Positions 35,417 to 59,047 of a DNA stretch of 64,000 bases are shown piece after piece. Made by a program: the position numbers and the translations under genes. This stretch comes from Candidatus Methanomethylicia archaeon. GTDB lineage: Archaea; Thermoproteota; Methanomethylicia; Nezhaarchaeales; B40-G2. The notes below the pieces were generated by a model. It had not been told where the DNA came from. It worked only from the letters and a program-made list of their open reading frames with translations, and did not search any database. Numbering within the stretch: the first letter of the stretch is position 1; each line of letters begins with the position of its first letter. The stretch lies in the NCBI GenBank assembly GCA_029259155.1, contig JAPDJI010000006.1, positions 5,657 through 69,656 on the forward strand, in the 5' to 3' direction.

Positions 35417-35872
35417 TTGGAGAAGCGGATGAGTTGGGACGAGTACTTTATGGAGATGGCCAAGCTGGTCAGTAAGCGTAGTACCTGTTTAAGGAGGCAT
35501 ACGGGCGCTGTGCTCGTGAAGGATAACCGTATAATTGCTACTGGCTATAATGGAGCCCCTAAAGGGTTACCCCACTGCGCGGAGGTTGGCTGTATGAGGG
35601 AGGCTTTAAAGGTGCCTTCAGGTCAGCGACATGAGCTCTGTAGAGGGCTACATGCGGAGCAGAACGCCATTATTCAGGCAGCGGTGTTCGGCGTAAGCAC
35701 TAGGGGCGCTACGCTGTACACTACGACCTATCCCTGCGTGATATGCGCCAAGATGATTATTAATGCCGAGATCGGGGAGGTAGTGTACGATGACGACTAC
35801 GAGGACGACTTAGCCAAGCGAATGCTCAGCGAGGCGAGGATTAAGGTTAGGAGGTTTAAGACACGACGCTAG
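35417..35872 (+). CDS. dCMP/cytidine deaminase family zinc enzyme
   Basis: HAEQNAI and PCVICAKMI zinc-binding motifs. Confidence 0.75.
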
Positions 35873-37286
35873 CAGCCCGCTCCGCTGCCTCGATCAACGG
35901 GTCTGGATGTAGGCCTAGGGCGAGGCAGATCAAGGCCAGGGCGAACATGGGTATTAGCATGGCGAACGATACTCTAACCCTCCCCAGCCTCCTGCGGGTC
36001 AACATGACTCGGTTGATAAAGCGGAGCCAAGCAGCTGAGAACACCGCCATCATCACCGCTGCGGCCACGGTGGGCGCCAGTAGCCCCACGTCGACCCCGG
36101 CCATGTAAATGAGGAGCTCGCTCACGAATATGTTCAGGCCAGGGATGCCGATGATGGATAAGGAACCTATAAGTCCCGCTGCGCTAGCCTCAGGCATGAA
36201 CCATAGCATGTCGCCCAGCGTCCTAATGTTCCTGACCTTCACCTCATGGACTATGCAACCAGCGTAGAGGAAGAGGAGGCTCTTCACTATCTCATGGTTC
36301 AAGGTGTGAGCCACTGCTGCTACAGCCGCTCCGTGAGCGAAGAGGCCTAGGGCGAAGACCACTAAGCCCATCTCGTTGATGCTTGAGTAAGCCATGAAGC
36401 GCTTGATGTCAAGCTGAGAGAAGGATAGAATGGCTGTGTAGCTAAGCATCGCAAGCCCACATCCCCACACTAGCCAGCTAACTGACCTCAATGACTCTAG
36501 GCTCCAGCAGCCATACAATATCCTTAGGAAGCCGTAGGCCGCGACCTCTATCATCAACCCTGATAGCATGGCGCTGACGGGTGCGGGTGCTTCTGAGTGA
36601 GCATCAGGGAGCCATACGTGAAGCAGGGGGATCACGCCCATCTTAATCAGTAAGCCTATGGACACGGAGGCCGCTGCGAAGACTTCAAGGGGGCTGTCTA
36701 GGCCAAGTTCCTTCACGGCCAGGAGGTTAAAGGTCCCCTTTAAGGCGTAGAGCGATAGCAGGCCGAAGAGGAGGGTTGTTGAGGCCACGTGGGAGATGAG
36801 TAAGTATAGCATCGCTGCCCTAGGTGCCTCAGCGCCCTCCCCGTAAAGGTGAATGAGGGCGTAAGAAGACCAGACCATGAGCTCCCAGAAGAGGTAGAAG
36901 GCTATCATGTCCACTGACATCAAGCATCCAATCATGCCTGAGGTGAAGAGCAGGAGGAGGCCGCTGTAGAGCTGAGAGCCGTGCTCCACATACTTAGTGC
37001 TGTAGGTTAGGCAGGCGTGGCTGATGAAGGAGGCTAGTACCACGAAGGCCGCATTAAGCTCGTCGAAGCACAGCAGCCAGCTAAAGGCCAGCGAGCCTCC
37101 GTGGCCCCAGGAAGCCTCGAAGCACGCTCCCCCTTGGAGGTAGAGCTTGGTCGATAAGGTAAGCGCGGCAATCAACGCGGTGAGCGCAGCGGCCCAGGCC
37201 GCTGTTGGTGGAAGCTTACGCGAGCAGAGCGTATTGAAGCAGCCCACGGCAAGGGGGATTAATAGAATTAAGGCAGCCTCAAACAT
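35856..37286 (-). CDS. Complex I/Mrp antiporter-like subunit, NuoM/MrpD-like
   Basis: [23 protein letters not shown] closely matches the NuoM signature; 14 TM. Confidence 0.7.
36559..36623. repeat. 65-nt tract identical to 38495..38559 (inside paralogous antiporter-like genes)
   Basis: cctgatagcatggcgctgacgggtgcgggtgcttctgagtgagcatcagggagccatacgtgaag occurs in both genes; identity extends to about 72 nt with one mismatch. Confidence 0.9.
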
Positions 37287-39177
37287 GTTTAACCAGCCTC
37301 CAAGCTAGTGTTGCGAGCAGCGAGGCGGTGAAGGCGAGGAGCCAGGCTTGATTAAGCGATGCAGCAAGGAGAGCGGTGAGGAGGGCTGAGAGGGCTAGGC
37401 TTACATCGACCATCCTCCTCAATAGCTCTGCGGGGTGTCTCCTTCTAAGCGCTTGGCCTAGTGGGAGGCTGGAGGCCTTAGAGAAGAAGGCTGACTCGTG
37501 GGTCCTGGCTACCTCCTTGGCGGTCAGCATGGCCGCGTCGGGCAAATCATCTAAGAAGCCAGCTCTAAGCTTAGCTTCGGAGCCTTGGCTTAGGAGCCTC
37601 GACATCCTTAGAAACGACGAGGCCAGCCAGGAATACGCGTAGTCCACGCCGAGCCCAGAGGTCAGCAACGATGTGAGCCTCCTCGGGGCCGTGCAGTTGC
37701 CTATTTGATAATAGGCCCACCATAGGGCCAGGCCGGCCAGTGCGCATAGTAGGGTAGAGGCCATCAGGAAGAGGCTGAGCCTTACTTCGAGGGATTCCAC
37801 GATTCCGAGCGTGACCATCCACCTAGCAGGGGTAATGAGCAGCACGCCTAGAGGAAGGCCTAGGAGGCAAGCTGAGGCAAGCGCTAGCATGGGAGGCAGG
37901 GTGGTGGACGGCGGCGAGGCCTCGACGAGCCTGTAGGAGGAGCCGTAGATGAAGCCGAGTAGCCTAGCCACGTAGGCCACGGTGAGGGCAGAGCCCAGCA
38001 TCATTAACCCAGCCACCCAGAGCCTCCCCTCCTCGAGGGCTGTGTCTATTATCAGGTCCTTGGTGAAGAAGGCGTTGAGAGGAGGGATGGCTGCGAGGGC
38101 TAGGGCACCTATAGCGAAGGCAGCTCCATGAAGCCTTAGGTCGGTCCCCACCCCCCTAAGCACCCTTAAGTCCCTAGACCCAGCAGCGTGGCTTAACACG
38201 CCGGCGGCTAGGAAGAGGAGGGACTTGAAGAGGGCATGGCTGAAGGCGTGTAGGCCTGCTGCCACTAAGCCCAGCGTGGAAGCTAGGCCGAGGGAGGCCA
38301 CCATGTACCCTAGCTGGCTTATGGAAGAGAAGGCCAACACCCTCTTCACGTCAAGCTCGACTAGGGCTGCTGCCCCTCCATAAAGCAGGGTTACTACCCC
38401 CCCGAGGAGTAGTAGGGGGGCCAGCCCCTCAGCTATTTCCACGCTTAAGTCCATGGTCCTAATCAGCATGTAGACCCCGACGTGTACCATCAATCCTGAT
38501 AGCATGGCGCTGACGGGTGCGGGTGCTTCTGAGTGAGCATCAGGGAGCCATACGTGAAGTGGGTAGATGGCCACCTTGAAGGCTAGCCCAGCGACCATTA
38601 AGGCGCAGGCCAGCTTCAAGCCCCACGTAGCCTCGTGGGCTGCTAAGAAGCGTAGCTGAGCGAGGTCGAAGGTATGGGTGGTCATGTAGAAGGTGACTAT
38701 GGACACTACCATCAACGCGCCGCCTAGGTGAGTGAAAATGAAGTACTTAGTAGCTATCGACAGCGCTTTCTCCTTGGGACACTCAGCCCAGTGGGCTATA
38801 AGGAGGTAGGAAGGTATCAACATGAACTCCCAGAACACGTAGAAGAGCACGAAGTTTCTTGAGGTCACTGAGCCAGCCATGCCGAGGGCGAAGAGGCATA
38901 GCAGGCCGAAGAACCTGGACCTATCAGTCTCCACGTAGCTGTGAGAGTAGACGCTGGCGAGGAGCGATATGGTGAGCACGAGGACTATGAAAGCCTGGGA
39001 GAGTAGGTCGTTGAAGAAGGGTAGGTCAATGGGGTCGGGGATGAAGAGGAAGGCGAGAGACATAGCCAAACCAAGTGAAGCTGCGAGACCTGCGTGTTCC
39101 TCAAGCCTATCGCTCACCGCTATGGTTAGAAGCACACCAGTGGCGGAGAGAACCATGAGAGAGTAGAGGGTACCCAT
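37279..39177 (-). CDS. Complex I/Mrp antiporter-like subunit, NuoL/MrpA-like (632 aa)
   Basis: [33 protein letters not shown] and a length consistent with NuoL including a long C-terminal region. Confidence 0.7.
   Translation of the reverse strand: MGTLYSLMVLSATGVLLTIAVSDRLEEHAGLAASLGLAMSLAFLFIPDPIDLPFFNDLLSQAFIVLVLTISLLASVYSHSYVETDRSRFFGLLCLFALGMAGSVTSRNFVLFYVFWEFMLIPSYLLIAHWAECPKEKALSIATKYFIFTHLGGALMVVSIVTFYMTTHTFDLAQLRFLAAHEATWGLKLACALMVAGLAFKVAIYPLHVWLPDAHSEAPAPVSAMLSGLMVHVGVYMLIRTMDLSVEIAEGLAPLLLLGGVVTLLYGGAAALVELDVKRVLAFSSISQLGYMVASLGLASTLGLVAAGLHAFSHALFKSLLFLAAGVLSHAAGSRDLRVLRGVGTDLRLHGAAFAIGALALAAIPPLNAFFTKDLIIDTALEEGRLWVAGLMMLGSALTVAYVARLLGFIYGSSYRLVEASPPSTTLPPMLALASACLLGLPLGVLLITPARWMVTLGIVESLEVRLSLFLMASTLLCALAGLALWWAYYQIGNCTAPRRLTSLLTSGLGVDYAYSWLASSFLRMSRLLSQGSEAKLRAGFLDDLPDAAMLTAKEVARTHESAFFSKASSLPLGQALRRRHPAELLRRMVDVSLALSALLTALLAASLNQAWLLAFTASLLATLAWRLVKHV
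38495..38559. repeat. 65-nt tract identical to 36559..36623
   Basis: See the paired repeat. Confidence 0.9.
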
Positions 39178-39181
39178 CGAC

Positions 39182-40633
39182 CTAGACCTCCATCATCCAA
39201 CTCTCCTCCAAGCAGGCTACGGCCGCCTTGTGAGCTGACTCAAGGAACGGTGAAGGAGCGAGGCCTATGAGGAAGCAACTTATGATCAGCGAGATTATTA
39301 GGGCTCGGAGGCCCCAGCTAGCTCCACGCTGCGTGGATGGCCCCTCCCCGGCCCTGCTGTACATGGAGTAGAGAGCCCTCATGAAAGATGCCAGCATAAC
39401 TAGGTCGAGCACGATGAAGGCCGCCGCTACCCATAGGAGACCCTCCTCAACCATCGATAGGAACACTAAGAACTTGCTGTGGAAGCCGTTGAGTGGGGGC
39501 ACAGCGCAGCTACTGAGCGAGGCTATAAGGAAGCCAGTGGTGCCTAGTAGCACGTGTTTATAGGCACCCTTTAAGGCATAGATTCTCCTTCCCTGAGAGG
39601 ACTGTATGAAGAGCGCTATGCTGGCGAAGAAGAGGTTCTTAATTAACACGAGGTTGAGCACGTGGAAGAAGACTCCTTGAAGGGCCGTATGGTTAGCTAT
39701 GCCCCAAGCCATCATCAACACACCCCCCTCCCCCACTGAGGTACAGGTTACGAGGCGCTTAAGGTCGTCCTGGCCGAGCGCAAGTAGGTAGCCAGCAGCC
39801 ATGTTTACAACAGCGGCCGCGAGGAAGAAGTCCTTCAAGGCTGGTAAGAGGGGACGGTACACGGTGAATAACATGCGGGTCGCTCCATAGAAGCCGACGA
39901 CTCTCACCGCAGCAGCCATGAACGCGCTCGAGGGGCTTGGAGCCCATGGGTTAACCCCCGGGAACCATATATGGGCTGGGAACACCGCTAACTTCACCCA
40001 AAAACCTCCCAGCACGAGGGGTAGGGTCAGCCATAGAGCCTGAGGCGGAATAGTGGAAGCCACCTCAGGTATCATGGTCGACCCTGCCTGAAGAGCTAGT
40101 ACCGCGAAGCCGAGCACGAGGAGGATGGTGGAGGCCGCGTCGAAGGCTAAGTAGAGCGCTAAGCTCTCCCTAGGCCCTGTATCTATGCCGACCTCGTCAG
40201 GTAGGCGGGGGGCCATGAAGTAGTAGGAGGCCAAGTTCATCAATAGGTAGAAGAGGAGAAAGCTAAGGAGGTCGCCACAGTAAATAAGGCTCACGATCCC
40301 CAGCAGGGATAAGGTGAGGGAAGCATAGTAAGCAGGATCGTTTAGCTTCTTTAAGTAAGTAGCTGCTAAGAGCATGGCGGCAGCTCCAGCCATGGTGAAC
40401 TTCTCGAGGAGCAGTGCTCCATAGGCGTCCAGGAAGAGAAGGCTTGGAGACCTAGAGAGCACGGCTGGGGTATCCTCGACAAGGGGGGCTGCTAAAAACG
40501 AAGCTGCTAGGCAGGCTAGGGAGCCTACTACAGCTACGTAGCTAGTAAGCTTAGCTCCACGCTTCACTACCGCTGAGGCTGAGGTGGCTACAGCTGTAAC
40601 AATAGCCGCCTGTAGAGGCAGTGAGGCTAGCAA
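39182..40633 (-). CDS. Complex I/Mrp antiporter-like subunit, NuoN/MrpD-like
   Basis: HIWFPGVNPWAPSPSSAFMAAAV motif; 14 TM. Confidence 0.65.
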   Translation of the reverse strand: MLASLPLQAAIVTAVATSASAVVKRGAKLTSYVAVVGSLACLAASFLAAPLVEDTPAVLSRSPSLLFLDAYGALLLEKFTMAGAAAMLLAATYLKKLNDPAYYASLTLSLLGIVSLIYCGDLLSFLLFYLLMNLASYYFMAPRLPDEVGIDTGPRESLALYLAFDAASTILLVLGFAVLALQAGSTMIPEVASTIPPQALWLTLPLVLGGFWVKLAVFPAHIWFPGVNPWAPSPSSAFMAAAVRVVGFYGATRMLFTVYRPLLPALKDFFLAAAVVNMAAGYLLALGQDDLKRLVTCTSVGEGGVLMMAWGIANHTALQGVFFHVLNLVLIKNLFFASIALFIQSSQGRRIYALKGAYKHVLLGTTGFLIASLSSCAVPPLNGFHSKFLVFLSMVEEGLLWVAAAFIVLDLVMLASFMRALYSMYSRAGEGPSTQRGASWGLRALIISLIISCFLIGLAPSPFLESAHKAAVACLEESWMMEV

Positions 40634-40649
40634 TTCACAAGGCCTCCAA

Positions 40650-41300
40650 TCAGAGGCCGAGGAAGTGTAGCCTATGCCTTCTCCTTAATAGGATGACTGC
40701 GTCTCCCTGCTCCAGCTGAGGTACTTCGTTAGGTAGTAAGGCGGCCCCCCCTCTGAGTATGAGGAGGGGGTAGGTGTCTTTGAGCTTCCTGCGTATGTCC
40801 AGCGGCCTAAGCCCCTTTAGCCTAGAGCCTTCGTCCACGGACACCTCCTCGACCTCTATGTCCTTGCGCACCATCTCAAGTAGCTCGAAGAGGCTTATTC
40901 TCCTAATCTTAGCGTAGATCCTTAACACCGAGGAATCTACGTGGTTGACCAGCTCGTGAAAGCCCAGCGACCTACAGACCTCAGCGTAGGAGGCGTGCTT
41001 TATTCGAACAAGCACCCTTCTAGCTCCTAGGTTCTTGGCTAGGAGGGAAGCAATGAGGTTCACTGGGTCGCTCCCTGTCAGGGCGGCGAAGACGTCAGCC
41101 CTCCCCACGCCCGCCTCGATTAACACGCGTGGGTCAGTGGCACTTCCGGTGAAGACGTTAACCTCAGCCTCGAGAGACTTGGCTAGCCTCTCGGTGACCT
41201 CTGGGCTAGTGTCGATGGCCGCTACTTTGTAGCCGTGGAGCACCATCCTCCTCACCGTGGCCTCTCCAACGTCGCCTAAGCCGGCCACTATGATAAACAA
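40650..41300 (-). CDS. trkA: TrkA/RCK protein (TrkA-N Rossmann plus TrkA-C)
   Basis: IIVAGLGDVG (GxGxxG) and C-terminal RCK_C. Confidence 0.75.
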   Translation of the reverse strand: MFIIVAGLGDVGEATVRRMVLHGYKVAAIDTSPEVTERLAKSLEAEVNVFTGSATDPRVLIEAGVGRADVFAALTGSDPVNLIASLLAKNLGARRVLVRIKHASYAEVCRSLGFHELVNHVDSSVLRIYAKIRRISLFELLEMVRKDIEVEEVSVDEGSRLKGLRPLDIRRKLKDTYPLLILRGGAALLPNEVPQLEQGDAVILLRRRHRLHFLGL

Positions 41301-41932
41301 CCACTAGCCCCCTCCTTGTGTCTGATTAACACGAGGACATCGCCCGGCTCCAGCGTCAAGTCGGGGTCGGGGAACTTCACCTCCCCCTCTGACAACACGA
41401 AGGCTGGGTAGGAGTTCTTCAGAACCTCCTCACCGAGCTCCTTGATCTTCCTCCACGCTAGCTCCGAGCCCTCCCCTATCTCGACGTGCTCGACGTCGAC
41501 GAAGTGCTCACCTATAGAGACTACGTCGGCCAGCTTAAAGCCATGGACAGATGCATCGATCCTAAACGCTGTGGCCTCGGCTGGGCTACAGATCTCGGTG
41601 AGGCCGACCATCCTACAGGCCTCCACGTACACCGGGTTCTCGACCCTCACCAACACCCTCCTAGCTCCCTGATGCTTAGCCAGTAGAGCTGAGACTAAGT
41701 TTACATCGTCGCTCCCCGTCAACGCTAAGAAGGTGTCAGCTTCCTCAACCCTCACCTGTTCCATGACGTGGGGGTCTGTTACGTCACCCTTCACCACCTC
41801 AACCCCCCTTGCCTCAAGCTCCCTGCAAGCAGCCTCATCGCGCTCGATCACCACGACGTGATAGCCAAGCCCCTTCAAGTAGGTCGCCAGCGCCCTCCCG
41901 ATGTCGCCTCCTCCGGCTATCACTACCTTCAC
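41288..41932 (-). CDS. trkA: TrkA/RCK protein (TrkA-N plus TrkA-C)
   Basis: VVIAGGGDIGRALA and C-terminal RCK_C; 13-nt overlap with the next trkA. Confidence 0.75.
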   Translation of the reverse strand: MKVVIAGGGDIGRALATYLKGLGYHVVVIERDEAACRELEARGVEVVKGDVTDPHVMEQVRVEEADTFLALTGSDDVNLVSALLAKHQGARRVLVRVENPVYVEACRMVGLTEICSPAEATAFRIDASVHGFKLADVVSIGEHFVDVEHVEIGEGSELAWRKIKELGEEVLKNSYPAFVLSEGEVKFPDPDLTLEPGDVLVLIRHKEGASGCLS

Positions 41933-42027
41933 TCCCTACCTCACCGCCGACCTTAAACTCTTAGATACGTAAAAGGGTATCGCCGTAAAGGAAATAGGTC
42001 GGCTAGTAAAAGAAACTATAGATAGGC

Positions 42028-42675
42028 TTGTTCGTGGTCATAGCTGGCGGCGGTGGTGTTGGTAAAGCTCTGGCTAAGAGGCTTATTGAGAGAGGGGAGA
42101 GGGTCGTCGTAGTGGACAAGGACCCCTCGACGTGCTCTATGCTTCGAGAGGAGCTGGGCGTCGAGGTGGTAGAGGGCGATGCTACCAACATGAACGTCCT
42201 CCAGCGCGCTGGCGTCGAACACTGTGACGCCCTCTTCGCCCTAGTTGGCCAGGGCAACATCAACGTCATGATAGCGTTGGCTGCCACTGTCTGTGGCTGT
42301 AAGGCTGGGAGGGTTGTAGTGAGGGTGGACAACGACCGCTACCTTGAAGTGTGTAGCATGCTCGGCTTGAAGGAGGTCGTGAACCCAGCTAAATCGGTGG
42401 CCGTAGTGGTGTCCGAGATGGTTAGAGGTGTCAAGCTAACCACGTTGGCGGAGATGTACTACAAGGGTTACATCGACGTAGAGAGCGTAAAGGCAGAGGA
42501 TGAACAGTATCTACAGGCCCTCGTAACTAAGATTGCCCATATGGTAGGTCAAGAATGCCACCCTATCCTCGTGATAAGGAACAGTAAGATCATGCTTCCT
42601 GAGCCTAACCTCAAGCTCAAGGCAGGGGATGAGGTAGTTCTCATAAAGCGGAGGAGTTTGATGTGCGCGTCGTGA
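42028..42675 (+). CDS. trkA: TrkA/RCK protein (TrkA-N plus TrkA-C)
   Basis: VVIAGGGGVGKALA; divergent from the minus-strand trkA pair. Confidence 0.75.
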   Translation: MFVVIAGGGGVGKALAKRLIERGERVVVVDKDPSTCSMLREELGVEVVEGDATNMNVLQRAGVEHCDALFALVGQGNINVMIALAATVCGCKAGRVVVRVDNDRYLEVCSMLGLKEVVNPAKSVAVVVSEMVRGVKLTTLAEMYYKGYIDVESVKAEDEQYLQALVTKIAHMVGQECHPILVIRNSKIMLPEPNLKLKAGDEVVLIKRRSLMCAS

Positions 42676-43289
42676 TAGCTGGAGGAGGAGATCTCGGGGA
42701 GTCGGTCGCCAGGATCTTAAAAATTCAAGGCGTACACGTCACCATAGTAGATCGAAGTAGGAAAACTTGTGAGAAGCTTGCTAAAAGGCTAGATGTGGAC
42801 TTTGTTGAAGGAGATGTCAGTGACCCATTAACGCTGGAAGAGGCGAGAATTGAGGAGGCTTCGGCTTTCCTAGCTTTAACGGGCGATGACTCCATTAACA
42901 CTATCTCCTCGCTCATAGCTAAGCGATACGGAGTTCCAAGAATAATAGCTAGAATAGAAGACTCGAGCTATGCTCGCGTATGTGAGGCTAATGGGGTGGA
43001 GGTCGTCAGCTTCGTTGAATCAGCCTCTATGATGTTGGAGGCCATATTGTATCACAATAAGCTGATCGAACTAACCTCATTAATAGAGGAGGAGGGGTTG
43101 GACATAGAGCGCATAGATTACCACGGTAAAACAGGGGAGTTAAAAATTAAGCATAATGACGCCTACCCAATTATGGTGGTGAGGGGCGGCGAAGTCTTCC
43201 TGCCCAATCCAGGGCTTAAGCTTAAAGATGGTGACAGAATATTCATCATAAAAAGGCGTAAGAAGCTCTTCTACATACCTGAGCTTTAA
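42663..43289 (+). CDS. trkA: TrkA/RCK protein (TrkA-N plus TrkA-C)
   Basis: VVIAGGGDLGESVA; 13-nt overlap with the previous gene. Confidence 0.75.
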   Translation: MRVVIAGGGDLGESVARILKIQGVHVTIVDRSRKTCEKLAKRLDVDFVEGDVSDPLTLEEARIEEASAFLALTGDDSINTISSLIAKRYGVPRIIARIEDSSYARVCEANGVEVVSFVESASMMLEAILYHNKLIELTSLIEEEGLDIERIDYHGKTGELKIKHNDAYPIMVVRGGEVFLPNPGLKLKDGDRIFIIKRRKKLFYIPEL

Positions 43290-46581: not shown

Positions 46582-48009
46582 TCATAGCCTTTCCCAAAGC
46601 TCCGAGGTGAATAGAGCTAGGATAGGTAGCAGTTCTAAGCGTCCAACCCACATACACCAGACCAAGGCCAGCTTCGAAGTAGCGTTAAGGCTGAAAAGAT
46701 CCAAGTACGCTGGTCCGACACCGCCCTCCGCTGATAAAGTGGCTGATAGAGCTGATGTGAAGGGTATGCCTTGGGCTGTTATGATAAGTGTAGAGACAAA
46801 AGCTACGGCCAAGTAGATGAAGAAGAAGCTAGCTACTCTTAACGCGTCTTCAACGTTCATGATCCTTCCTCCGACTTTGAGAGGTTTAATGGACTTTGGA
46901 GGAAGCATGGTTTTATGTACTTCATGTGACGCTAGCTTGAAGAGCACTATCATCCTCGCCACCTTGATAGCTCCAGCGGTGGAGCATAGCGATCCACCTA
47001 CGACCATCAATATCATCAATATCCACTTAGACGCCTCGGGAAGAGAATTAACATCCATGCTGGTGAAACCGGTTGTCGTAGCTATGGAAACTGTCTGAAA
47101 TACACCTAGCCTAAATGCATGTAGTGTACTAACGTTTAGATGAAGAACTATATCGAGGGAGACTATGATCGAAGCTACGGCTATAATCATTAACATTACC
47201 TTAAGCTCCAGGTTCCTCCAAACCTCATCGTTCCTCCCTTTAAGTAGATAGAGGTGGACGTGGAAGTTGGTGGCCCCTATAATCATGAACACCACTAGTA
47301 CGCTCTCTACCCAGGGGTTATGAAACCCCTCTATATTAAGTGTCTTTGTTGAAAATCCTCCAGTGGCCAACGTGGTAAAGGAGTGGCATAGAGCGTCGAA
47401 GCCCGAGAGGCCTAGGTAAGTCAGCAAAATAGCGCACAGGAAGGTGTAAAGCGTGTATATTAGCCAAAGATCCTTAACCGTGTCCCATGCCCTAATCGTA
47501 AGTTTCTCCTCTCTAGCTTCAGCTACGTAAAGCCTCCAAACTCCAATTCCACGTGGAGTCATAAAGAGGATGAAGAACAATACGATTCCAAGCCCTCCAA
47601 GCCATTGAGTTAAGGCCCTCCAGAAGAGTAAGCTATGAGGGACATCTTCAAGATTGCTCAGTAAGGTCATGCCAGTAGCCGTAAACCCAGACATGGCTTC
47701 AAAGAAAGCGTCCAGGGGTGCCATGTCATGTAGGTATGGAAGAGAGCCAATACCTGTTATCAGGAGCCAACCCATTGCTGAGAAGAACAAGGCCTGAGCT
47801 GGATTGATCTCGTCAGGGATGGGTAGCTTCGCGCTAAAGAAACCGCCTACAATCATGAGGGGGAGAGCTACTGAAAGCAGCTCTTCAAGAACCATCCACT
47901 CCTCATAGATTACAGCTACAAGACTAGGGGCTAAGAGCACGAGCCCAAGCAACAATGTGAGCCTCGCGAAGAGAGCAGGTAGTGCCAGTTTCTTCAATCC
48001 TGACACCAA
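46582..48009 (-). CDS. trkH: TrkH/KtrB-family K+ transporter membrane subunit
   Basis: MSGFTATGMT and SIATTTGFTSMD pore-loop motifs. Confidence 0.75.
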   Translation of the reverse strand: MVSGLKKLALPALFARLTLLLGLVLLAPSLVAVIYEEWMVLEELLSVALPLMIVGGFFSAKLPIPDEINPAQALFFSAMGWLLITGIGSLPYLHDMAPLDAFFEAMSGFTATGMTLLSNLEDVPHSLLFWRALTQWLGGLGIVLFFILFMTPRGIGVWRLYVAEAREEKLTIRAWDTVKDLWLIYTLYTFLCAILLTYLGLSGFDALCHSFTTLATGGFSTKTLNIEGFHNPWVESVLVVFMIIGATNFHVHLYLLKGRNDEVWRNLELKVMLMIIAVASIIVSLDIVLHLNVSTLHAFRLGVFQTVSIATTTGFTSMDVNSLPEASKWILMILMVVGGSLCSTAGAIKVARMIVLFKLASHEVHKTMLPPKSIKPLKVGGRIMNVEDALRVASFFFIYLAVAFVSTLIITAQGIPFTSALSATLSAEGGVGPAYLDLFSLNATSKLALVWCMWVGRLELLPILALFTSELWERL

Positions 48010-52342: not shown

Positions 52343-53257
52343 CTAAGCTTCCTTAAACAGCCCCTTAATGGACGTAGCGCTTAGGTCTTTGGGGGGTACA
52401 AGGTGCAGGTGGAGGCCTACGTCTTCAACAGGATGAAAGCCTAAAGCTAAGCCTACTAACTGCGAGACGTGGAGCACGGGGATAACTTTATCGAGCTCGC
52501 CGAGGTCTCTCATCTGGTACTGCGTCTTATCTATCATTAGCTGGCAGGCAGTACACATCACTAATATTAGGTCTGCGTCTGCGTCCACCATGCTCGTTAC
52601 CTTTAGCCTCGACACCGGGCTAAGGGCTTCTAGGACCCAGGGCCACTTCATGGCTGTGGCGCCGCAACACGTAGCTTTCTCTTCGTAGCTCAGTACGTTC
52701 GCACCGAGCGATAAAGCTATATCTTCTAGTAGATCCTCGCCATCCACGCCCTTAATGGCTTTAGCGTGCATGGCATAAGCGTAGTGACAGCCTACATGAG
52801 TAACCACATTAAGCCCTTTTAGGGAGTCCTGGGCCATCTCGCTTATCTTCTCTCTGAGAAGCCATAGAACCTCAGCCACGTGTAGACACTCTATGTTCTC
52901 TGAAGGACTTTTCTTCAGAGCTACGTTAAACGTCCTGTAGCAGCCGTTGCAAGGCGTCACCACTACGTCGTGTTTGATCAGTCTTCGCATATTGTAGCTG
53001 GTCAACATCTTCAACTCCTCCCTACCTATCATCCCTGCTATTTCAAGCGGTAGGCCGCAGCAGACAACGTGTTCAGGACTGAGTACTTTGAAGCCTAGTT
53101 TCTCAAGCACCTTAATGGAGGAGTAAGTTACGCCGGGGTAAATGCTTGTAGCTATGCAGCCAGGGTAGAACGTTAAGCTCCTCCTCTTTAAGAGCTCCTC
53201 CATCTCAAGCCTCACCTTAAGCTTTCTTGCCCCTCGGCTTAGGCCCTCGCCCCCCAA
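52343..53257 (-). CDS. hdrB: Heterodisulfide reductase subunit B-like (two CCG domains)
   Basis: Two Cys-rich CCG motifs (VVCCGLP, ATCCGAT). The real start is probably the ATG of MEELLKRR near 53206, avoiding the overlap with hdrC. Confidence 0.7.
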   Translation of the reverse strand: MGGEGLSRGARKLKVRLEMEELLKRRSLTFYPGCIATSIYPGVTYSSIKVLEKLGFKVLSPEHVVCCGLPLEIAGMIGREELKMLTSYNMRRLIKHDVVVTPCNGCYRTFNVALKKSPSENIECLHVAEVLWLLREKISEMAQDSLKGLNVVTHVGCHYAYAMHAKAIKGVDGEDLLEDIALSLGANVLSYEEKATCCGATAMKWPWVLEALSPVSRLKVTSMVDADADLILVMCTACQLMIDKTQYQMRDLGELDKVIPVLHVSQLVGLALGFHPVEDVGLHLHLVPPKDLSATSIKGLFKEA

Positions 53258-53669
53258 TGATCTTTCTCAGCTCAGCTCTCACGTATTCTGGGAGCAGGCG
53301 AGGGTTAAGCCCCCTCGGCTCGTTGAAGTCGCGTACCTTATCATTCACAGGCGCCATCATAACTCCTCGGCTCAGTATATTGTCGAGAGCCTCTAAGTAG
53401 ACCTCTAAGTCGCCTCGCTCTAGACCTCTGCTCACGAGCATCCTTCTCAGCGCCTCTACGACCTCAGGTATGTGTACTGCATTGGGACATACGGCCTCAC
53501 AGGTGTGACATAATAGGCAGAGCCAAAGGTGGTCGTGAAGCGCCTCTCTACCCATCGCTACGTTTAGCATGACTCTTCTAGGGCTGAAGCTCATTGTAGC
53601 TCTTGCTGATGGACAGGCAGATGTACATGCTCCACACTGGATACATCTGCGTCCTTCACTGAGTAGCAA
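53217..53669 (-). CDS. hdrC: Heterodisulfide reductase subunit C-like (2x[4Fe-4S])
   Basis: CIQCGACTSACP and CLLCHTCEAVCP. Confidence 0.7.
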   Translation of the reverse strand: MLLSEGRRCIQCGACTSACPSARATMSFSPRRVMLNVAMGREALHDHLWLCLLCHTCEAVCPNAVHIPEVVEALRRMLVSRGLERGDLEVYLEALDNILSRGVMMAPVNDKVRDFNEPRGLNPRLLPEYVRAELRKIIGGRGPKPRGKKA

Positions 53670-54065
53670 TTCTAAAATAACTCTTCACCTCCTATTGAAT
53701 TTATGTCGGAAGTCGAACTCATGCTGTTGGTAGCTAGGGTGCACGGCGCTGAAGTAGTTTCACGGATATGTACTGCCTGCAGGGAATATGAGGATGCTGT
53801 AGCGCTAGCTTTAATCTCGAAGGTGGACGCTGAGAGGCTCGGGCTTAAGGATGGAGACCTCGTTGAGGTGTCTTCTATTACGTCTGTAGTGACCGTTAAG
53901 GTTAAGGTCTCCGATGAGGTACGTGAGGGGCAAGTCTTGATGCCGCAGAGCCCTTGGTCTATGTCGCTCATACCTAGCAGCTGGGCTTCAAGGCCATACC
54001 CTAGGCTTAGCGGACTCAAGGTAACGGTTAAGCGGTCTTCGGGTGAAGCAACCAGCCTTGACAAG

Positions 54066-55373
54066 CTACTCCACTCCTGAGAACTCTTTCCTCAACCTCT
54101 CGAGGTCGCCGCGCTCGAAGAGTATCCTAACCTTTGGGGAGGCGAAGATCTTGATGGCCTCCTCGACTCTTCTCTTAACCAGCTCGAAGCCTGCTGGAAG
54201 AGGTGGTATAGGTCTCGGGGGCGGCGGCACGTACTCTTCTGTGGGAAGCTCTACTTTCCTCGCGTATAGCTCGCCCCTTGGCGCTCTGTAGCCTTCAAGC
54301 ACTTTCTTAAAGAACTCTTCATAGCTAGCTGACCAAGGGGCTCTACCTTTCTCAATCCTCATGTGCTTTCTCCTAACCTCTAAGGCCTCGACAGGACAGG
54401 CCTCCTCGCAGGCTCCACAGTATATGCAAGCTTCCTTGACAGCCGATACCTTGTCTGGTCCCACTGCCTTAGAGACGTATATTGCCTTAGTCGGACAAAT
54501 GTTGATGCAGTTTTTACATCCTGAAGGATCGCACTTATCAGGGTTAACCATGACCACCTCTCCGTCAAAGGGGGGCTCACAGCTTACAGCCTCGGTGGGA
54601 CATACCTTAGCGCATAGCCCACAGTAGACGCAGAGCTCTTCGTCGACCTCCACCGAGCCGCTTACGCGAGGCTTCTCTACGACCCTCGGCGCAGCCTTTG
54701 TACACTCGACCTTTATAGCGTCCGTCGGACATATCTCCTCGCATAGGCCACAGTAGTCGCAGAGCTCCTCGTTGACGATGATTGTTAGCCCCGGCTTAAA
54801 GCTGGGCGCTTCAGGCCGAGTCCACTCAATCCGTAGCGCATCGCAGAGATCTTCGCATAGGCCGCAGTAACAACACTTCTCTAGGTCTACAGCTATCTTG
54901 CCCTCGGCGTACCTATCAGCTGTCTCGTACTTGACAAGGTCTTCCTTCTTAGCCACCTCGACCTTAGCCTTGATGGCTACACGAGGGCACACGCGCTCGC
55001 ATAGGTGGCATGGGATGCACTTGTCCTCATCGATCGATATGGAGCCCTCGACCCTTGGGTACTCCTCCTCGTGCTCGATGTTGACCTTGAGGGCGTGGGT
55101 AGGGCAGATTGACGAACATAGGGGGCATATCACGCACTTGCCCTCGTCTATCATTATGAGGGGGGCCTCCAACTTACCTGAAGCGACCTCCTTAATGGGC
55201 CCCAAGCTAATGGCGTTAGTGGGGCACACCTTGACGCATAGACCGCAGCCCACACAACGATCGATTATGAAGGTTAGCTCCTTACCTAATACAACGCCCT
55301 GCCACCTGTAGAGCAGGAGATTTTCCTCTATCGCTGAGAGCTCGGTGATGGGCTTCTCAGACAAAGCTTCCAC
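54066..55373 (-). CDS. Polyferredoxin with eight [4Fe-4S] motifs (FwdF/MvhB-like)
   Basis: Eight CxxCxxCxxxC(P) motifs counted; 17-nt overlap with the hdrA stop. Confidence 0.75.
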   Translation of the reverse strand: MEALSEKPITELSAIEENLLLYRWQGVVLGKELTFIIDRCVGCGLCVKVCPTNAISLGPIKEVASGKLEAPLIMIDEGKCVICPLCSSICPTHALKVNIEHEEEYPRVEGSISIDEDKCIPCHLCERVCPRVAIKAKVEVAKKEDLVKYETADRYAEGKIAVDLEKCCYCGLCEDLCDALRIEWTRPEAPSFKPGLTIIVNEELCDYCGLCEEICPTDAIKVECTKAAPRVVEKPRVSGSVEVDEELCVYCGLCAKVCPTEAVSCEPPFDGEVVMVNPDKCDPSGCKNCINICPTKAIYVSKAVGPDKVSAVKEACIYCGACEEACPVEALEVRRKHMRIEKGRAPWSASYEEFFKKVLEGYRAPRGELYARKVELPTEEYVPPPPRPIPPLPAGFELVKRRVEEAIKIFASPKVRILFERGDLERLRKEFSGVE

Positions 55374-57768
55374 CTCCAGTGGCCTCGGAGCCTATTGGCC
55401 CGAGGTTAGCCACCTCATCCACGAACCATCTTATCAGCTCCGCCAGCCTCTTTCCCTCAGTCGCTGAAGCCCCGTCGATGTGGAGCCTCCTAGGGTTTAT
55501 GCCTACCTCCTTCAACACTTCCCTGAGGGCTGAGGCCCTTTCATTAGCCTTCGCCCTGCCGGAGCGGTAGTGACAGTCTTGTTCGTGGCAGCCAACTATG
55601 AGCACGCCGTCAGCCCCCAACTCAAAGGCCTCTAGCACGTGTACCGGCGTGACCCTAGCTGAACAAGGCACCCTGATGACCCTCACGTTAGTCGGGTAGG
55701 GAATCTTGCTAGTCCCAGCGTTGTCTGCGGCTGCGTAGCCGCACCACTGGCACATGAAGGCCACTATGAGCGGGAACTCCTTCTTCTCGGACAGCAGGGC
55801 CTTAAGCATGAGCGATATCTGCTCGTTGCTCAGGATCCCGCCGGGAGGAGATAGAGCTCCTGTCGGACACACTGCATAGCATGCTCCACAGCCTCGGCAG
55901 GCTAGCTCATCTACCTCCACCTTCCCCTTCTCCACCTTCAGGGCTCCGAAGAGGCATGCATTTACGCAAGCGAAGCATCGCTTACATGTACTTGGATCAA
56001 TGGTAGGAGCGTAGACCTCAACCTCAACCTCACCTCTCTTGATGAGCTCTGCTGCCCTAGCCGCCGCAAGCCCAGCTTGCATGACAGACTCGGTTATATC
56101 CTTAGGCCCTGTGCACGCTCCCGCCACGAAGATTCCTTTGCTGAAGGTGTCGGCTGGGTTAAGCTTTAAGTGATACTCAGCTAGGAAGTCGTAATCGCTT
56201 AGCTGTAGGCCGAGGAGCTTGGCCAGCTCCCTATTGTCTGGGGGCGCCTCCACGCCTACGCTGAGTACGACGAGGTCGAACTCCTCCTCGACCATCTCTG
56301 AGGAGAGTGTGTCCTCGTAGAAGATCTTGATCCTCCCTTGCTTCGTGGCCCTAAGCTGCCCTACCTTCGCCCTTAGGAAGCGTACGCCCAGCTCCAGGGC
56401 CCTCCTGTAGGCTTCCTCACACGCCTTGCCAATGGCTCTCACGTCGGTGTAGAAGATGGCAACGTCGACGTCGGGGAGCATGAGCTTGGTCTGTATGCTC
56501 TGCTTGATGGCGTTCATGCAACATACTCGGCTACAGTAAGGCCTCCCAATCCTGTCAGACCTGCTCCCCACACACTGTATGAAGGCTACTTTCTTAGGTT
56601 GCGCCCCGTCCGATAACCTAATTATTTTTCCCTTGGTTGGACCCGAGCTATTAAGCATCCTTTCGTACTCGGGCCCCGTCACGACGTCGAGGCACCTGCC
56701 ATAAAGGTATTCTGGAAGCCCCCGCGGGTCAAAGGGCTTGAAGCCGGTGGCTACGATGATGGCCCCTACCTTGAACTCGATGTAAGAGTCTTGGTCCTTG
56801 AAGTTTATAGCTTTAGGATCGCATACCCCGAGGCACGACATGCAGCCAATACACCTACTCATATCTATGTAAGGCGCTGGAGGGACGGTTTCTGGCGAGG
56901 GCTTAACGATGGCCCTCCTCATACCTATACCGTAGTCGTACTCGCTGGGGGCCTCGATGGGGCATACATCGAGGCACTTATTGCACCCGTTGCAGAGCTT
57001 TTCATCGATGTACCGAGCCTTCTTCAACACCTTCACGGTGTAGTTGCCGGGCGCACCCTTGACCTCTACGACCTCGCTCAGCGTGTACACGTCTATTAGG
57101 GGGTGGTTGTACACCTTCGAGAGTTGGGGGCCTAGCACGCAAATGCTGCAGTCAAGGGTTGGATAGACCTTGTCCCACTTGGCCATGTGCCCCCCTATGA
57201 AGCCCTCCTTCTCCACGAGGTATACCTTGATCCCCATGTCGGCAAGGCTTAGAGCGGCTGTGATCCCTGCTACGCCTCCACCTATGACTAGGACCGCTTT
57301 CTCCACGGGCAGCTTTGCTACCTTAGCCTCCCTGGCGTAAGGCGCTGCGGCTATGGCCATGCTGACCAGGTCAGCGGCCTTGACGGTAGCTCTATCTGGG
57401 TCGTGTGCGTGGACCCATGAGCACTGTTCCCTCAGGTTAACTATCTCCACGAAGCCTCTATTGAGGCCAGCCTCCTCAGCGGCGTTCTTGAAGAGCTCGC
57501 TGTGTAGTGTAGGGGTGCAGCATCCTATGATTAAGCGGCTAGCCTTCTCCTCCTTTAAGGCCTCTTTTATTTTTCTTAGGCCATCATCGCTGCAGCAGTG
57601 CTCATGTTCATAGAAGGCTACGTCTGAGTACTTCTCAGATAGAGTTTTAATGACCTTACCTACATTTACTACCCCTGCGATGTTTGAGCCGCAGTGACAG
57701 ATGAAGGTCAGGACCTTGCTGGGAGCTCCCCCCGCACCGTCCAGCCTAGCCGTCTAGACCACCTTCAT
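55357..57768 (-). CDS. hdrA: Heterodisulfide reductase subunit A fused to a C-terminal MvhD domain; the conserved N-terminal Fe-S domain lies upstream of the first canonical start and is preceded by ATG-AAG-GTG-GTC-TAG
   Basis: FAD motif VLVIGGGVAG, inserted ferredoxin motifs, C-terminal FMCQWCGYAAAD...IRVPCSARV (MvhD). The in-frame upstream sequence LTFICHCGSNIAG...IIGCCTPTLH...NLREQCSWVH is the HdrA N-terminal domain. The ORF track starts at GTG 57450; ATG at 57766..57768 is followed by an in-frame TAG at 57754..57756. Confidence 0.7.
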
Positions 57769-57775
57769 TAAGCGT

Positions 57776-59047
57776 TTAGAGCGAGGAGCTCAACCTCTCA
57801 AGGAACACCTCCTCGTCAGCCACGCTGGCTGGAGGCTTAAGGAAGGGTTTAAGCTTCACTTCGACGCCGTCCATCCTCGTAACTGTCCCTCCACTCTCAA
57901 CACCCATTATTGAGAGCGGAACCGAGACTTTCCCGTTAGAGAAGGTCCAGGTAGCCCTCTCCTCTAGGACTATTGTTGGGATCCTCATTAAAGCCTTAAC
58001 TGCTAGAGGGGTTAGTTCCTCGGACACCTCGCTTTTAACTATGAGTGCTGCGTCCACCCCTTCCCGCTCGAGCTGGCAAGTTGCAGTAGCCTCAGGGGAC
58101 ATGTGTTCTTTAAGGGCTGAGAAATCCAGGGCCCGTGGCGCGCCCCCAAGCTTCTTTGTGATGAGGGCTTGGCCCATAGAGTTCACGTACTCAGCCATAG
58201 GCATTATGGAGACCTTCTTTCCAAGCTCAAGCAGCGACCTAGCCAGCTCAGCCATGGAGCTTAAAGCCTCTTCAGGCTTCTCCGACTGAAGTAGTCCGCG
58301 GCCGATGAACATAGCCACGTAGGTGGCCGGCTTAAGGTCCTTAATTATGGATGAGAGGTCCCTTAAAGTTACACCTGCGGCCTCGCCCACCGTGGGGGTC
58401 TTGCTAAACATAAGGTCTCTTAGCGCTCTAGCGAGCTCAGCGTCGCTTCCAGGCCTTAACAGTACTTTATGCTGGGCTATCCTCATGGTATTAGTCTCCC
58501 TAACATCGACCACCGCGACTATCCTGCTCTCTCTGCCCATAGGGGTGCTTCTTCCCCTCGGAAACACGGCGTAGCGACTTGCATGCCTCAGGTGAGTCTC
58601 TGCGGGATCCGCACCCCAGTACAATATGAAATCGGCGTCTTCAAGGATATCGTCCAAGCGAGCGCCTAGGAAAGAGGGGTCGAGGTCTAAGAGGGCGTGG
58701 CAAATGCTCGCTGAGCTATCGTAGAGTCCTCTAAGCTTCTGGGCTAGTTTTACTAGAAGCTCTACAGTCCTATTGGTACTGTTTGCCCCTCCGTAGATAA
58801 GCGGCTTCTTCGCCACCTTTAAGATCTCAGCGGCCTTTTCTAAAGCTTCGTCCACCGACACCTCCTTGAGTCCTCCCTGCTCAGCGATGGCCACCTTCAT
58901 AGGCCTAGCTCCGACGAGCTCCTTGAACCTCTTGGTCCCATGGCTACAAGTACCCAGGACCCTAGTTACCGTGTTGTCTCTTACGTCCACCACTATATCG
59001 TCGCACAGCAACGAGCAACTAGTGCAGGGCACACCCTCTATCTCCAT
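57776..59047 (-). CDS. Formylmethanofuran dehydrogenase subunit B (FwdB/FmdB)-like molybdo/tungstopterin subunit
   Basis: VPCTSCSLLCDDI, ASICHA, DFILYWGADPAETHLRHASR, VAVVDVRET, VTRMDGVEV align motif-for-motif with the FwdB N-terminal Fe-S, the active-site Cys region and the pterin-binding segments. Confidence 0.7.
   Translation of the reverse strand: MEIEGVPCTSCSLLCDDIVVDVRDNTVTRVLGTCSHGTKRFKELVGARPMKVAIAEQGGLKEVSVDEALEKAAEILKVAKKPLIYGGANSTNRTVELLVKLAQKLRGLYDSSASICHALLDLDPSFLGARLDDILEDADFILYWGADPAETHLRHASRYAVFPRGRSTPMGRESRIVAVVDVRETNTMRIAQHKVLLRPGSDAELARALRDLMFSKTPTVGEAAGVTLRDLSSIIKDLKPATYVAMFIGRGLLQSEKPEEALSSMAELARSLLELGKKVSIMPMAEYVNSMGQALITKKLGGAPRALDFSALKEHMSPEATATCQLEREGVDAALIVKSEVSEELTPLAVKALMRIPTIVLEERATWTFSNGKVSVPLSIMGVESGGTVTRMDGVEVKLKPFLKPPASVADEEVFLERLSSSL

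Follow-up and report, generated by a model that had tools for sequence, protein, structure and literature searches.

An operon joining N-, L- and M-like subunits of the complex I type to TrkA-type RCK genes in an uncultured archaeal lineage

Introduction

The distal membrane arm of respiratory complex I consists of three PF00361 subunits of the N, M and L types (NuoN-NuoM-NuoL, or Nqo14-13-12). A glutamate in transmembrane helix (TM) 5 of NuoN faces NuoK and the E-channel in this enzyme, and it receives the signal coming from NuoK. Mrp antiporters (CPA3) likewise employ antiporter-like subunits, among them an L/MrpA-type subunit whose lateral helix clamps its neighbors, and they work without a redox module; they contain two antiporter-like subunits and depend on MrpB, C, E, F and G, the small subunits to which the Na+ path is ascribed. 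We know of no RCK regulator of an Mrp system. Here, we analyze a 64-kb stretch of archaeal DNA (contig JAPDJI010000006.1 of assembly GCA_029259155.1, positions 5,657 to 69,656; hereafter the window), in which genes for N-, L- and M-like subunits share an operon with the genes for two TrkA-type RCK proteins, RCK1 and RCK2. We describe the structure and conservation of this operon, the purifying selection acting on it, the types of its subunits, their residue changes and the absence of partner genes from its loci.

Regulators of the RCK type are familiar from K+ systems such as TrkAH, KtrAB, KefC and KhtTU. There, cytosolic RCK proteins with a Rossmann nucleotide site are encoded beside a membrane ion-translocating partner, which in the known systems is a TrkH/KtrB channel or a CPA2 exchanger and never a PF00361 protein. 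Antiporter-like subunits outside complex I and Mrp are found in the DAB/Mps systems (DabB or MpsA with DabA or MpsB), in which a single PF00361 subunit is paired with a carbonic-anhydrase-like partner. In addition, Nqo13 and Nqo12, isolated as laboratory constructs, conduct protons in liposomes as autonomous modules, and replacing the TM5 glutamate raises the proton conduction of such isolated modules (Beghiah et al., PMC11496545). Antiporter-like modules and RCK regulators are thus each well known alone. A natural three-subunit L/M/N arm that lacks small subunits and is paired at the operon level with RCK genes appears to be undescribed; we found no paper joining RCK/TrkA proteins with antiporter-like (Mrp/Nuo) subunits, in agreement with the original prediction, made from the DNA sequence of the window, which did not recognize this architecture as a described one.

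Results

Five tightly packed genes form one operon

RCK1, RCK2 and the genes for the N-, L- and M-like proteins follow one another in this order on the minus strand of the window, from 41932 to 35856 in the table of open reading frames (ORFs; coordinates in Table 1). The junctions comprise a 13-nt overlap between RCK1 and RCK2, a 16-nt gap between RCK2 and the N-like gene, a 4-nt gap between the N- and L-like genes and an 8-nt overlap between the L- and M-like genes. At its 3' end, the operon is limited by a convergent cytidine deaminase gene that overlaps the 3' end of the M-like gene; at its 5' end, it is limited by a divergent RCK gene 95 bp upstream of RCK1. Due to these two boundaries, the operon has no space for small subunits. 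The original prediction had proposed five tightly packed minus-strand genes, separated by overlaps or by gaps of 16 nt or less, without room for the small Mrp subunits; the exact coordinates bear out the former claim, and the operon boundaries together with the families of the flanking genes bear out the latter.

Upstream of RCK1, a promoter-like block is composed of CCTTTTACG, a spacer of about 15 nt and AGGTCGGCG, and a GGTGA Shine-Dalgarno-like sequence lies between AGGTCGGCG and the GTG start codon of RCK1. The CCTTTTACG-spacer-AGGTCGGCG block is identical in three species, represented by the window and by two related loci (L006 and L002; see below), and L002 keeps it despite a different upstream neighbor gene. 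This conservation would be consistent with a shared promoter and a single transcript. The five genes constitute one operon. An Rfam scan of the window yielded zero matches.

The block is confined to one lineage and is under purifying selection

Our searches covered 5.8 billion clustered proteins, 185,579 species genomes (one genome each, with the L-like protein as query) and 241 million metagenome records of the Joint Genome Institute (JGI). Within this search space, the block was restricted to four or five hydrothermal-sediment genomes of related, uncultured Nitrososphaerota ('Geothermarchaeota'). Among the clustered proteins, the L-like protein has three close relatives (identical, 66% and 60%), after which Bathyarchaeia NuoM follows at ~40% identity. 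The N-like protein has four lineage orthologs (100, 79, 71 and 69%), the next protein being a Nitrososphaerales NuoN at 29%; an exhaustive HMMER pass with the N-like protein over 1.84 billion representatives gave the lineage cluster at 703 bits and the next match at 201 bits and 27% identity. No family intermediate between the lineage orthologs and outside proteins emerged from the searches with the L-like protein, the N-like protein and RCK2. The scan of species genomes returned one close locus, L006, from an uncultured Nitrososphaerota metagenome-assembled genome (MAG), and the JGI records yielded three loci, which stem from two samples. The sources with a name are 'Candidatus Geothermarchaeota archaeon ex4572_27', which originates from Guaymas Basin hydrothermal sediment, and 'Thermoprotei archaeon' MAGs. 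The family is real but confined to one small uncultured lineage.

The order and orientation RCK1-RCK2-N-L-M are kept in every locus that is long enough, that is in L001/L006, L002 and L003/L087, the last having the same sequence as the window; the short locus L088 shows RCK2-N-L. Among the loci searched, synteny of the block is restricted to the lineage. Across L001/L006, L002 and L088, the amino-acid identity of the block is 60–87% and the synonymous substitution rate (dS) is saturated. As gene order persists at this divergence and with differing neighbors (see below), the block is not a chance arrangement. Ratios of nonsynonymous to synonymous rates (dN/dS) are 0.04–0.27 for all five genes in comparisons of full-length orthologs, at dS > 1, so that these ratios are approximate; comparison of the M-like gene with a truncated fragment from L002 gave 0.25–0.43. 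Low dN/dS in all five genes, though approximate, excludes pseudogenes, and these sequence comparisons indicate that all five genes are under purifying selection. When an RCK profile was run over 85 loci that included the nearest L/M/N relatives, RCK genes were detected in the lineage loci only; the combination of RCK and L/M/N genes was not found in the other lineages sampled in this set.

The three membrane subunits are of the complex I type

All three large proteins match PF00361 in Pfam (114–215 bits), and the Pfam matches of the L-like protein are limited to PF00662 and PF00361. The best NCBIfam models of the N-, L- and M-like proteins are those of NuoN, NuoL and NuoM, respectively, with MrpA, MrpD and Hyf models scoring more weakly. 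All three scores stay below the curated cut-offs (N-like protein with TIGR01770 NuoN, 142.6 bits, cut-off 332.6; L-like protein with the NuoL model, 259.6–260.7 bits, cut-off 407.5; M-like protein with TIGR01972 NuoM, 233.6 bits, cut-off 263.8).

An AlphaFold2 (AF2) model of the N-like protein, with a predicted local distance difference test score (pLDDT) of 93.8, shows 14 helices, a β-hairpin after TM2 and broken TM7 and TM12, as in subunits of the complex I arm. In Foldseek comparisons, it reaches TM-scores of 0.90–0.92 with MrpD and 0.85–0.89 with NuoN/NdhB. The AF2 model of the L-like protein has a confident core, with TM15 at residues 469–493, followed by a helix of about 80 residues (498–579) and a hydrophobic anchor (582–631); this C-terminal part is modeled at a pLDDT of 40–70. 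The models of both the N- and the L-like protein show the PF00361 core of 14 TM helices in which TM7 and TM12 are broken. The best full-length structural matches of the L-like protein are NuoL/ND5/NdhF (TM-score 0.74–0.76 over ~630 columns, C-terminal helices included), and with the longer MrpA the TM-score is 0.57 when normalized to MrpA length. Unlike MrpA (~800 aa), the 632-aa L-like protein has no C-terminal MrpB-like extension. As modeled, its ~80-residue helix would be long enough to span two neighboring subunits in the fashion of complex I.

In a rough neighbor-joining tree without support values, the N-like protein is sister to NuoN and the M-like protein groups with NuoM; the core of the L-like protein is placed beside the NuoM clade and not inside NuoL. 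The best PDB sequence match of the N-, L- and M-like proteins alike is MbhH of the Pyrococcus hydrogenase. Given this match and the tree position of the L-like protein, the fine placement of the trio within the superfamily is uncertain. The L/M/N division of labor in the trio is clear. Since the TM12 residues specific for the L, M and N types (see below) and the L lateral helix with its anchor are kept, the trio is of the complex I type and not of the Mrp type, and it differs from Mrp also in comprising three antiporter-like subunits instead of two. Of the complex I/Mrp-like module that had originally been proposed, the complex I half therefore stands, with L, M and N types represented, and the Mrp half falls, based on the NCBIfam models, the TM12 residues and the L lateral helix. 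Origin of the trio by recent duplication was ruled out, as the paralogs are less alike than each of them is to outside NuoM or NuoN proteins.

Channel residues point to a retained relay and an altered input end

We aligned the three subunits with E. coli NuoL, NuoM and NuoN (locus L086) and with archaeal Nuo subunits. Judged by this alignment, the L-like protein keeps the complete NuoL proton-path pattern, with E117 in TM5, K201 in TM7, H232 in TM8, H310/H314/K318 in TM11 and K373-D374 in TM12. The M-like protein has E135, K215 and K335 as well as the NuoM-specific TM12 glutamate, E390; its central TM8 lysine is replaced by a glutamate (E247), which is also present in the ortholog. The corresponding residues of the N-like protein are L130, K214, R244, K332 and K387, with the TM12 lysine kept, the central lysine exchanged for arginine (R244) and the TM5 glutamate replaced by leucine or alanine in all four orthologs (L130 here). 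The type-specific TM12 residues of the three proteins (K373-D374 in L, E390 in M, K387 in N) are conserved in their orthologs. The trio thus shares with the complex I arm the TM12 series K, E, K-D and the TM5-Glu/TM7-Lys pairs in M and L, and differs from it at the TM5 and central positions of N and at the central position of M. The Lys/Glu channel residues, to which the original prediction had drawn attention, are accordingly complete in one subunit of three, two canonical residues having been lost from the N-like protein and one exchanged in the M-like protein.

The altered positions are rare among the 240 homologs that we collected. The TM5 glutamate is present in 233 of them, the seven exceptions being the four N-like proteins, two truncated sequences and one protein with glutamine. 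Arginine at the central position of N is found in this lineage only, and glutamate at the central position of M recurs in only three other homologs. Two proteins with this central glutamate were considered as parallels and rejected: P0137 belongs to a group-4 hydrogenase cluster and P0112 is from a short contig, both without RCK genes.

In the complex I arrangement, the charge relay between subunits is intact, with K387 of N facing E135/K215 of M and E390 of M facing E117/K201 of L. In the same comparison, the input end of the arm is dismantled, as the N-like protein lacks the TM5 glutamate and carries arginine in place of the central lysine. Residues ~142–157 of the N-like protein, in the TM5-TM6 loop, comprise an acidic insertion (PDEVGxDTGPRES) that is lineage-specific and highly conserved. 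This insertion is predicted to be cytoplasmic and might be where a soluble partner docks.

RCK1 and RCK2 are equivalent to one split TrkA

RCK1 matches the Pfam families TrkA_N (102.1 bits) and TrkA_C (27.4 bits, cut-off 27); RCK2 matches TrkA_N (86.7 bits) and gave no TrkA_C match. Residues 3–205 of RCK2 align to the second RCK repeat of Vibrio TrkA with its C-lobe included, and the RCK2 ortholog P0242 carries PF02080. Both proteins have nucleotide-binding motifs of the GxGxxG type with an acidic residue after β2 (GGGDIG and E30 in RCK1, GLGDVG and D30 in RCK2). The second RCK repeat of Vibrio TrkA is the best PDB match of both (4G65/4J9U for RCK1), and the next relatives in the PDB are Methanocaldococcus TrkA, TM1088 and KtrA/KtrC. 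RCK1 and RCK2, as adjacent half-size paralogs, are equivalent to one tandem TrkA in split form, so that by analogy a hetero-octameric RCK1/RCK2 ring would be the natural expectation. TM1088 reportedly forms a two-subunit ring.

Orthologs of RCK1 in L006 and L002 show 68–69% identity and dN/dS of 0.09–0.18. RCK2 has four orthologs in the lineage, beyond which identity falls to 31%, and its dN/dS is 0.04–0.15. Together with the second pair of half-size RCK genes that lies upstream (RCK3 and RCK4; Table 1), the region encodes four RCK paralogs, each of which has its own ortholog at 300–323 bits, compared with ~130 bits between paralogs. As the ortholog scores far exceed those between paralogs, the four RCK paralogs are old.

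No partner genes of complex I, Mrp or hydrogenases were found near the trio

Custom profiles for NuoA, NuoB, NuoD, NuoH, NuoJ and NuoK gave no match in the 64-kb window or in the lineage loci L001, L002, L003 and L006. In contrast to complex I clusters, these loci thus come without NuoA/H/J/K or Q-module genes, and they also differ in the order N-L-M and in having RCK genes in the same operon. No small Mrp subunit is encoded in or beside the operon, where a NuoK/MrpC-type profile matches nothing. A hydrogenase partner was not detected among the larger ORFs scanned in the window, and no DabA/MpsB (DUF2309) gene adjoins the trio, its neighbors being the RCK genes and the cytidine deaminase gene. 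Within this range, the lack of Nuo and hydrogenase partners noted in the original prediction is upheld.

The nearest outside relatives of the trio reside in canonical nuoABCDHIJKLMN operons. Of the non-lineage loci in the genome scan, 75 of 79 carry a nuoK homolog and most also carry nuoH and nuoJ; those without nuoK are short contigs and orphan PF00361 genes of Chloroflexota. The latter (L049, L054) were rejected as parallels, as L054 is a single, unrelated nuoM paralog. The next-best matches of the N-like protein are fused proteins of ~1250 aa with two or three PF00361 matches (P0246, P0247 and P0255; locus L093, 8001–11819). Next to P0246 are NuoH/B/I/C/D-like genes and, at a greater distance downstream, genes for HypA and a hybrid-cluster (prismane) protein; no nuoK/J-like gene is annotated beside it. 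It was ruled out as a free-standing arm, being the membrane subunit of a hydrogenase/carbon monoxide dehydrogenase-type cluster; apparently, this one polypeptide makes up the membrane arm of an energy-converting hydrogenase. In papers on Geothermarchaeota, we did not find an inventory of respiratory genes.

The five-gene block persists in variable surroundings

The operon is embedded in an ion-homeostasis neighborhood with four RCK paralogs. RCK3 and RCK4 are followed by a convergent gene for a CLC chloride channel, an M28 peptidase gene and a TrkH gene (Table 1). The original prediction had missed the second RCK pair (42028–43289, plus strand), the CLC gene and the TrkH gene, which provide the RCK genes of the operon with a possible conventional partner. 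RCK3, RCK4 and CLC occur together in the window and in L006, and all three are absent from L002 (ex4572_27), where RCK1 comes directly after the M28 peptidase gene and the order RCK1-RCK2-N-L-M is intact. Neither L006 nor L002 has TrkH close to the cluster. This pattern hints that the RCK3/RCK4 pair goes with the CLC gene and not with TrkH. L001/L006 carry two extra genes (radical-SAM and PadR-family) between CofC and CofD. The five-gene block stays together as its surroundings vary.

Table 1. Coordinates in the window of the operon genes, the promoter-like block and the neighboring ion-homeostasis genes
Feature	Coordinates	Strand	Description
RCK1	41288..41932	minus	214 aa, half-size TrkA-type RCK protein; TrkA_N and TrkA_C; first gene of the operon
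RCK2	40650..41300	minus	216 aa, second half-size RCK protein; TrkA_N
N-like antiporter-like subunit	39182..40633	minus	483 aa, 14 TM; PF00361
L-like subunit	37279..39177	minus	632 aa; PF00361 and PF00662; NuoL architecture
M-like subunit	35856..37286	minus	476 aa; PF00361; NuoM-type TM12 Glu
Promoter-like block 5' of RCK1	41945..41976	minus	CCTTTTACG, ~15 nt spacer, AGGTCGGCG
RCK3	42028–42675	plus	Half-size RCK gene
RCK4	42663–43289	plus	Half-size RCK gene
CLC chloride-channel gene	44731–43286	minus	Convergent with RCK3/RCK4
TrkH gene	46582–48009	minus	Found by Pfam scan; 4.6 kb from the operon

The segment 35417–42675 forms an island of high third-position GC content (GC3), with values of 0.64–0.73 for the deaminase, M, L, N, RCK2, RCK1 and RCK3 genes, compared with 0.40–0.57 for most genes of the window; ORFs examined in related genomes have GC3 of 0.61–0.81. 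The GC3-rich block may have been imported, as an allele from a relative of higher GC content, or may stem from a chimeric assembly. No donor emerged, as the flanking genes resemble L006 at least as closely as the block does.

A heterodisulfide reductase (Hdr)/MvhD-like cluster at 52343–59047 encodes a CCG-domain protein, 4Fe-4S proteins, a molybdopterin-like protein and a 697-aa FAD/Fe-S protein that ends in a FlpD/MvhD domain, and its genes from 54066 to 59047 have raised GC3 (0.62–0.69). Its presence is consistent with an anaerobic lifestyle. Other larger ORFs scanned in the window encode proteins of unrelated families, among them CofC, CofD, a nitroreductase, a DUF488 protein and an ABC transporter, or are without a Pfam match. 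ORFs of 395, 475 and 654 aa (10473–11660, 13990–15417 and 16338–18302, respectively) gave no Pfam match at E ≤ 1e-5; GC3 is unusually high (0.65) in the first of these.

Discussion

Based on these results, we suggest that the five-gene operon encodes what remains of the distal arm of complex I, now free-standing, and an RCK regulator of its own, a reading that we regard as plausible, though somewhat short of probable. On a more tentative level, the trio may be an autonomous N-M-L arm that has lost the redox and E-channel modules and serves as an ion transporter gated by a TrkA-like, nucleotide-sensing RCK ring. In the main reading, the N-, M- and L-like subunits would lie next to one another, arranged N-M-L like their complex I counterparts and clamped by the lateral helix and the C-terminal anchor of the L-like subunit, and the arm would act independently of complex I. 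RCK1 and RCK2 would form a ring that binds nucleotides (ATP/ADP or NAD(H)). This ring would be located at the cytoplasmic face of the arm, the predicted side of the L lateral helix and of the acidic TM5-TM6 loop of the N-like subunit, and would turn the passage of ions through the arm on or off. The most likely activity would be regulated proton conduction coupled to the movement of monovalent cations, that is K+/H+ or Na+/H+ exchange, with the buried E247 of the M-like subunit as a candidate cation site; an anaerobe of hydrothermal sediment could use this activity to keep its pH and K+ in balance. That such modules can act autonomously has experimental precedent in the proton conduction by isolated Nqo13 and Nqo12, which differ from the present system in not being a natural three-subunit arm with RCK genes. 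That RCK1 and RCK2 belong with the trio is suggested by L002, in which the five-gene block is intact in spite of the missing second RCK pair and CLC gene, and by RCK2, which has no relative above 31% identity outside these loci.

Several points weigh against this proposal. To our knowledge, RCK regulators occur only with Trk/Ktr systems, K+ channels and CPA2 transporters. The TrkH gene is only 4.6 kb from the operon and the second RCK pair begins 95 bp upstream of it on the opposite strand; with the CLC gene next door, these neighbors suggest that the RCK genes could have a more conventional function. The Na+ path proposed for solved Mrp complexes reportedly involves small subunits, all of which are absent at this locus. 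The arginine in the center of the N-like subunit would not shuttle protons, and the lateral-helix part of the L-like model is of low confidence. Finally, the genomes are incomplete MAGs (63% completeness for ex4572_27) and stand for only three or four independent species from a single habitat. The finding would surprise specialists and be easy to test; the case consists of gene-level evidence from a handful of MAGs of one lineage.

A rather unlikely but serious alternative is that the trio constitutes the distal pump module of the host's complex I, or of an Fpo/Nuo-like enzyme, with nuoA, B, C, D, H, I, J and K located elsewhere and co-transcription with the RCK genes unrelated or loosely related to this function. 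Retention of a complex I type-specific TM12 residue in each subunit and of the L lateral helix would fit this scenario, as would nearest relatives that all stem from complex I and the tree positions of the N- and M-like proteins next to NuoN and NuoM; moreover, split nuo clusters and orphan nuoM genes exist (L049/L054), and our scan for partner genes was confined to the window and related loci. Against this scenario, the N-like subunit lacks the TM5 glutamate that faces NuoK in complex I and carries a central arginine, and the M-like subunit has a central glutamate. All three subunits also score below every curated NuoL/M/N cut-off and show just 29–40% identity to the nearest true Nuo subunits, the nearest homologs have nuoK adjacent in 75 of 79 cases, and the order N-L-M is kept across species in one tight operon with RCK genes.

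It is also unlikely, in our estimate, that RCK1 and RCK2 are simply a split TrkA of the ordinary kind, serving a Trk/Ktr-type K+ channel (TrkH in the window or one encoded elsewhere) and sharing a transcript with the trio for co-regulation only, for instance to balance K+ uptake by H+, without a complex being formed. The best PDB matches of both proteins are indeed TrkA of the TrkAH system, a TrkH gene lies nearby on the same strand, and the characterized RCK partners known to us are all K+ channels or transporters. On the other hand, L006 and L002 have no TrkH near the cluster, RCK3 and RCK4 are available in the window to serve TrkH, and RCK1 and RCK2 are joined to the trio operon in every genome, with outside relatives of RCK2 at no more than 31% identity. 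Very improbable, finally, is a decaying relic of a lost complex I without present function. The loss of canonical residues from the N- and M-like subunits and the anaerobic lineage with Hdr/Mvh-like genes nearby might be taken in its favor, but four or five genomes have intact reading frames, full-length comparisons give low dN/dS at saturated dS, AF2 models the N-like subunit with very high confidence and the promoter-like block is conserved.

What drives and gates antiporter-like subunits is the question at the heart of work on complex I, Mrp and related pumps. If the proposal of a free-standing, RCK-regulated arm is true, RCK control would be seen for the first time in the complex I/Mrp superfamily, and the antiporter modules isolated by engineering would have an equivalent in nature. 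As a system of small size and easy handling, such a three-subunit arm would allow the study of what these modules do alone, with the inter-subunit relay kept, the E-channel-facing input residue lost and a soluble ligand-binding ring supplied. It would also widen the targets of RCK regulators past K+ channels and CPA2 exchangers, and would document one route by which modules of complex I are re-used after the loss of respiration.

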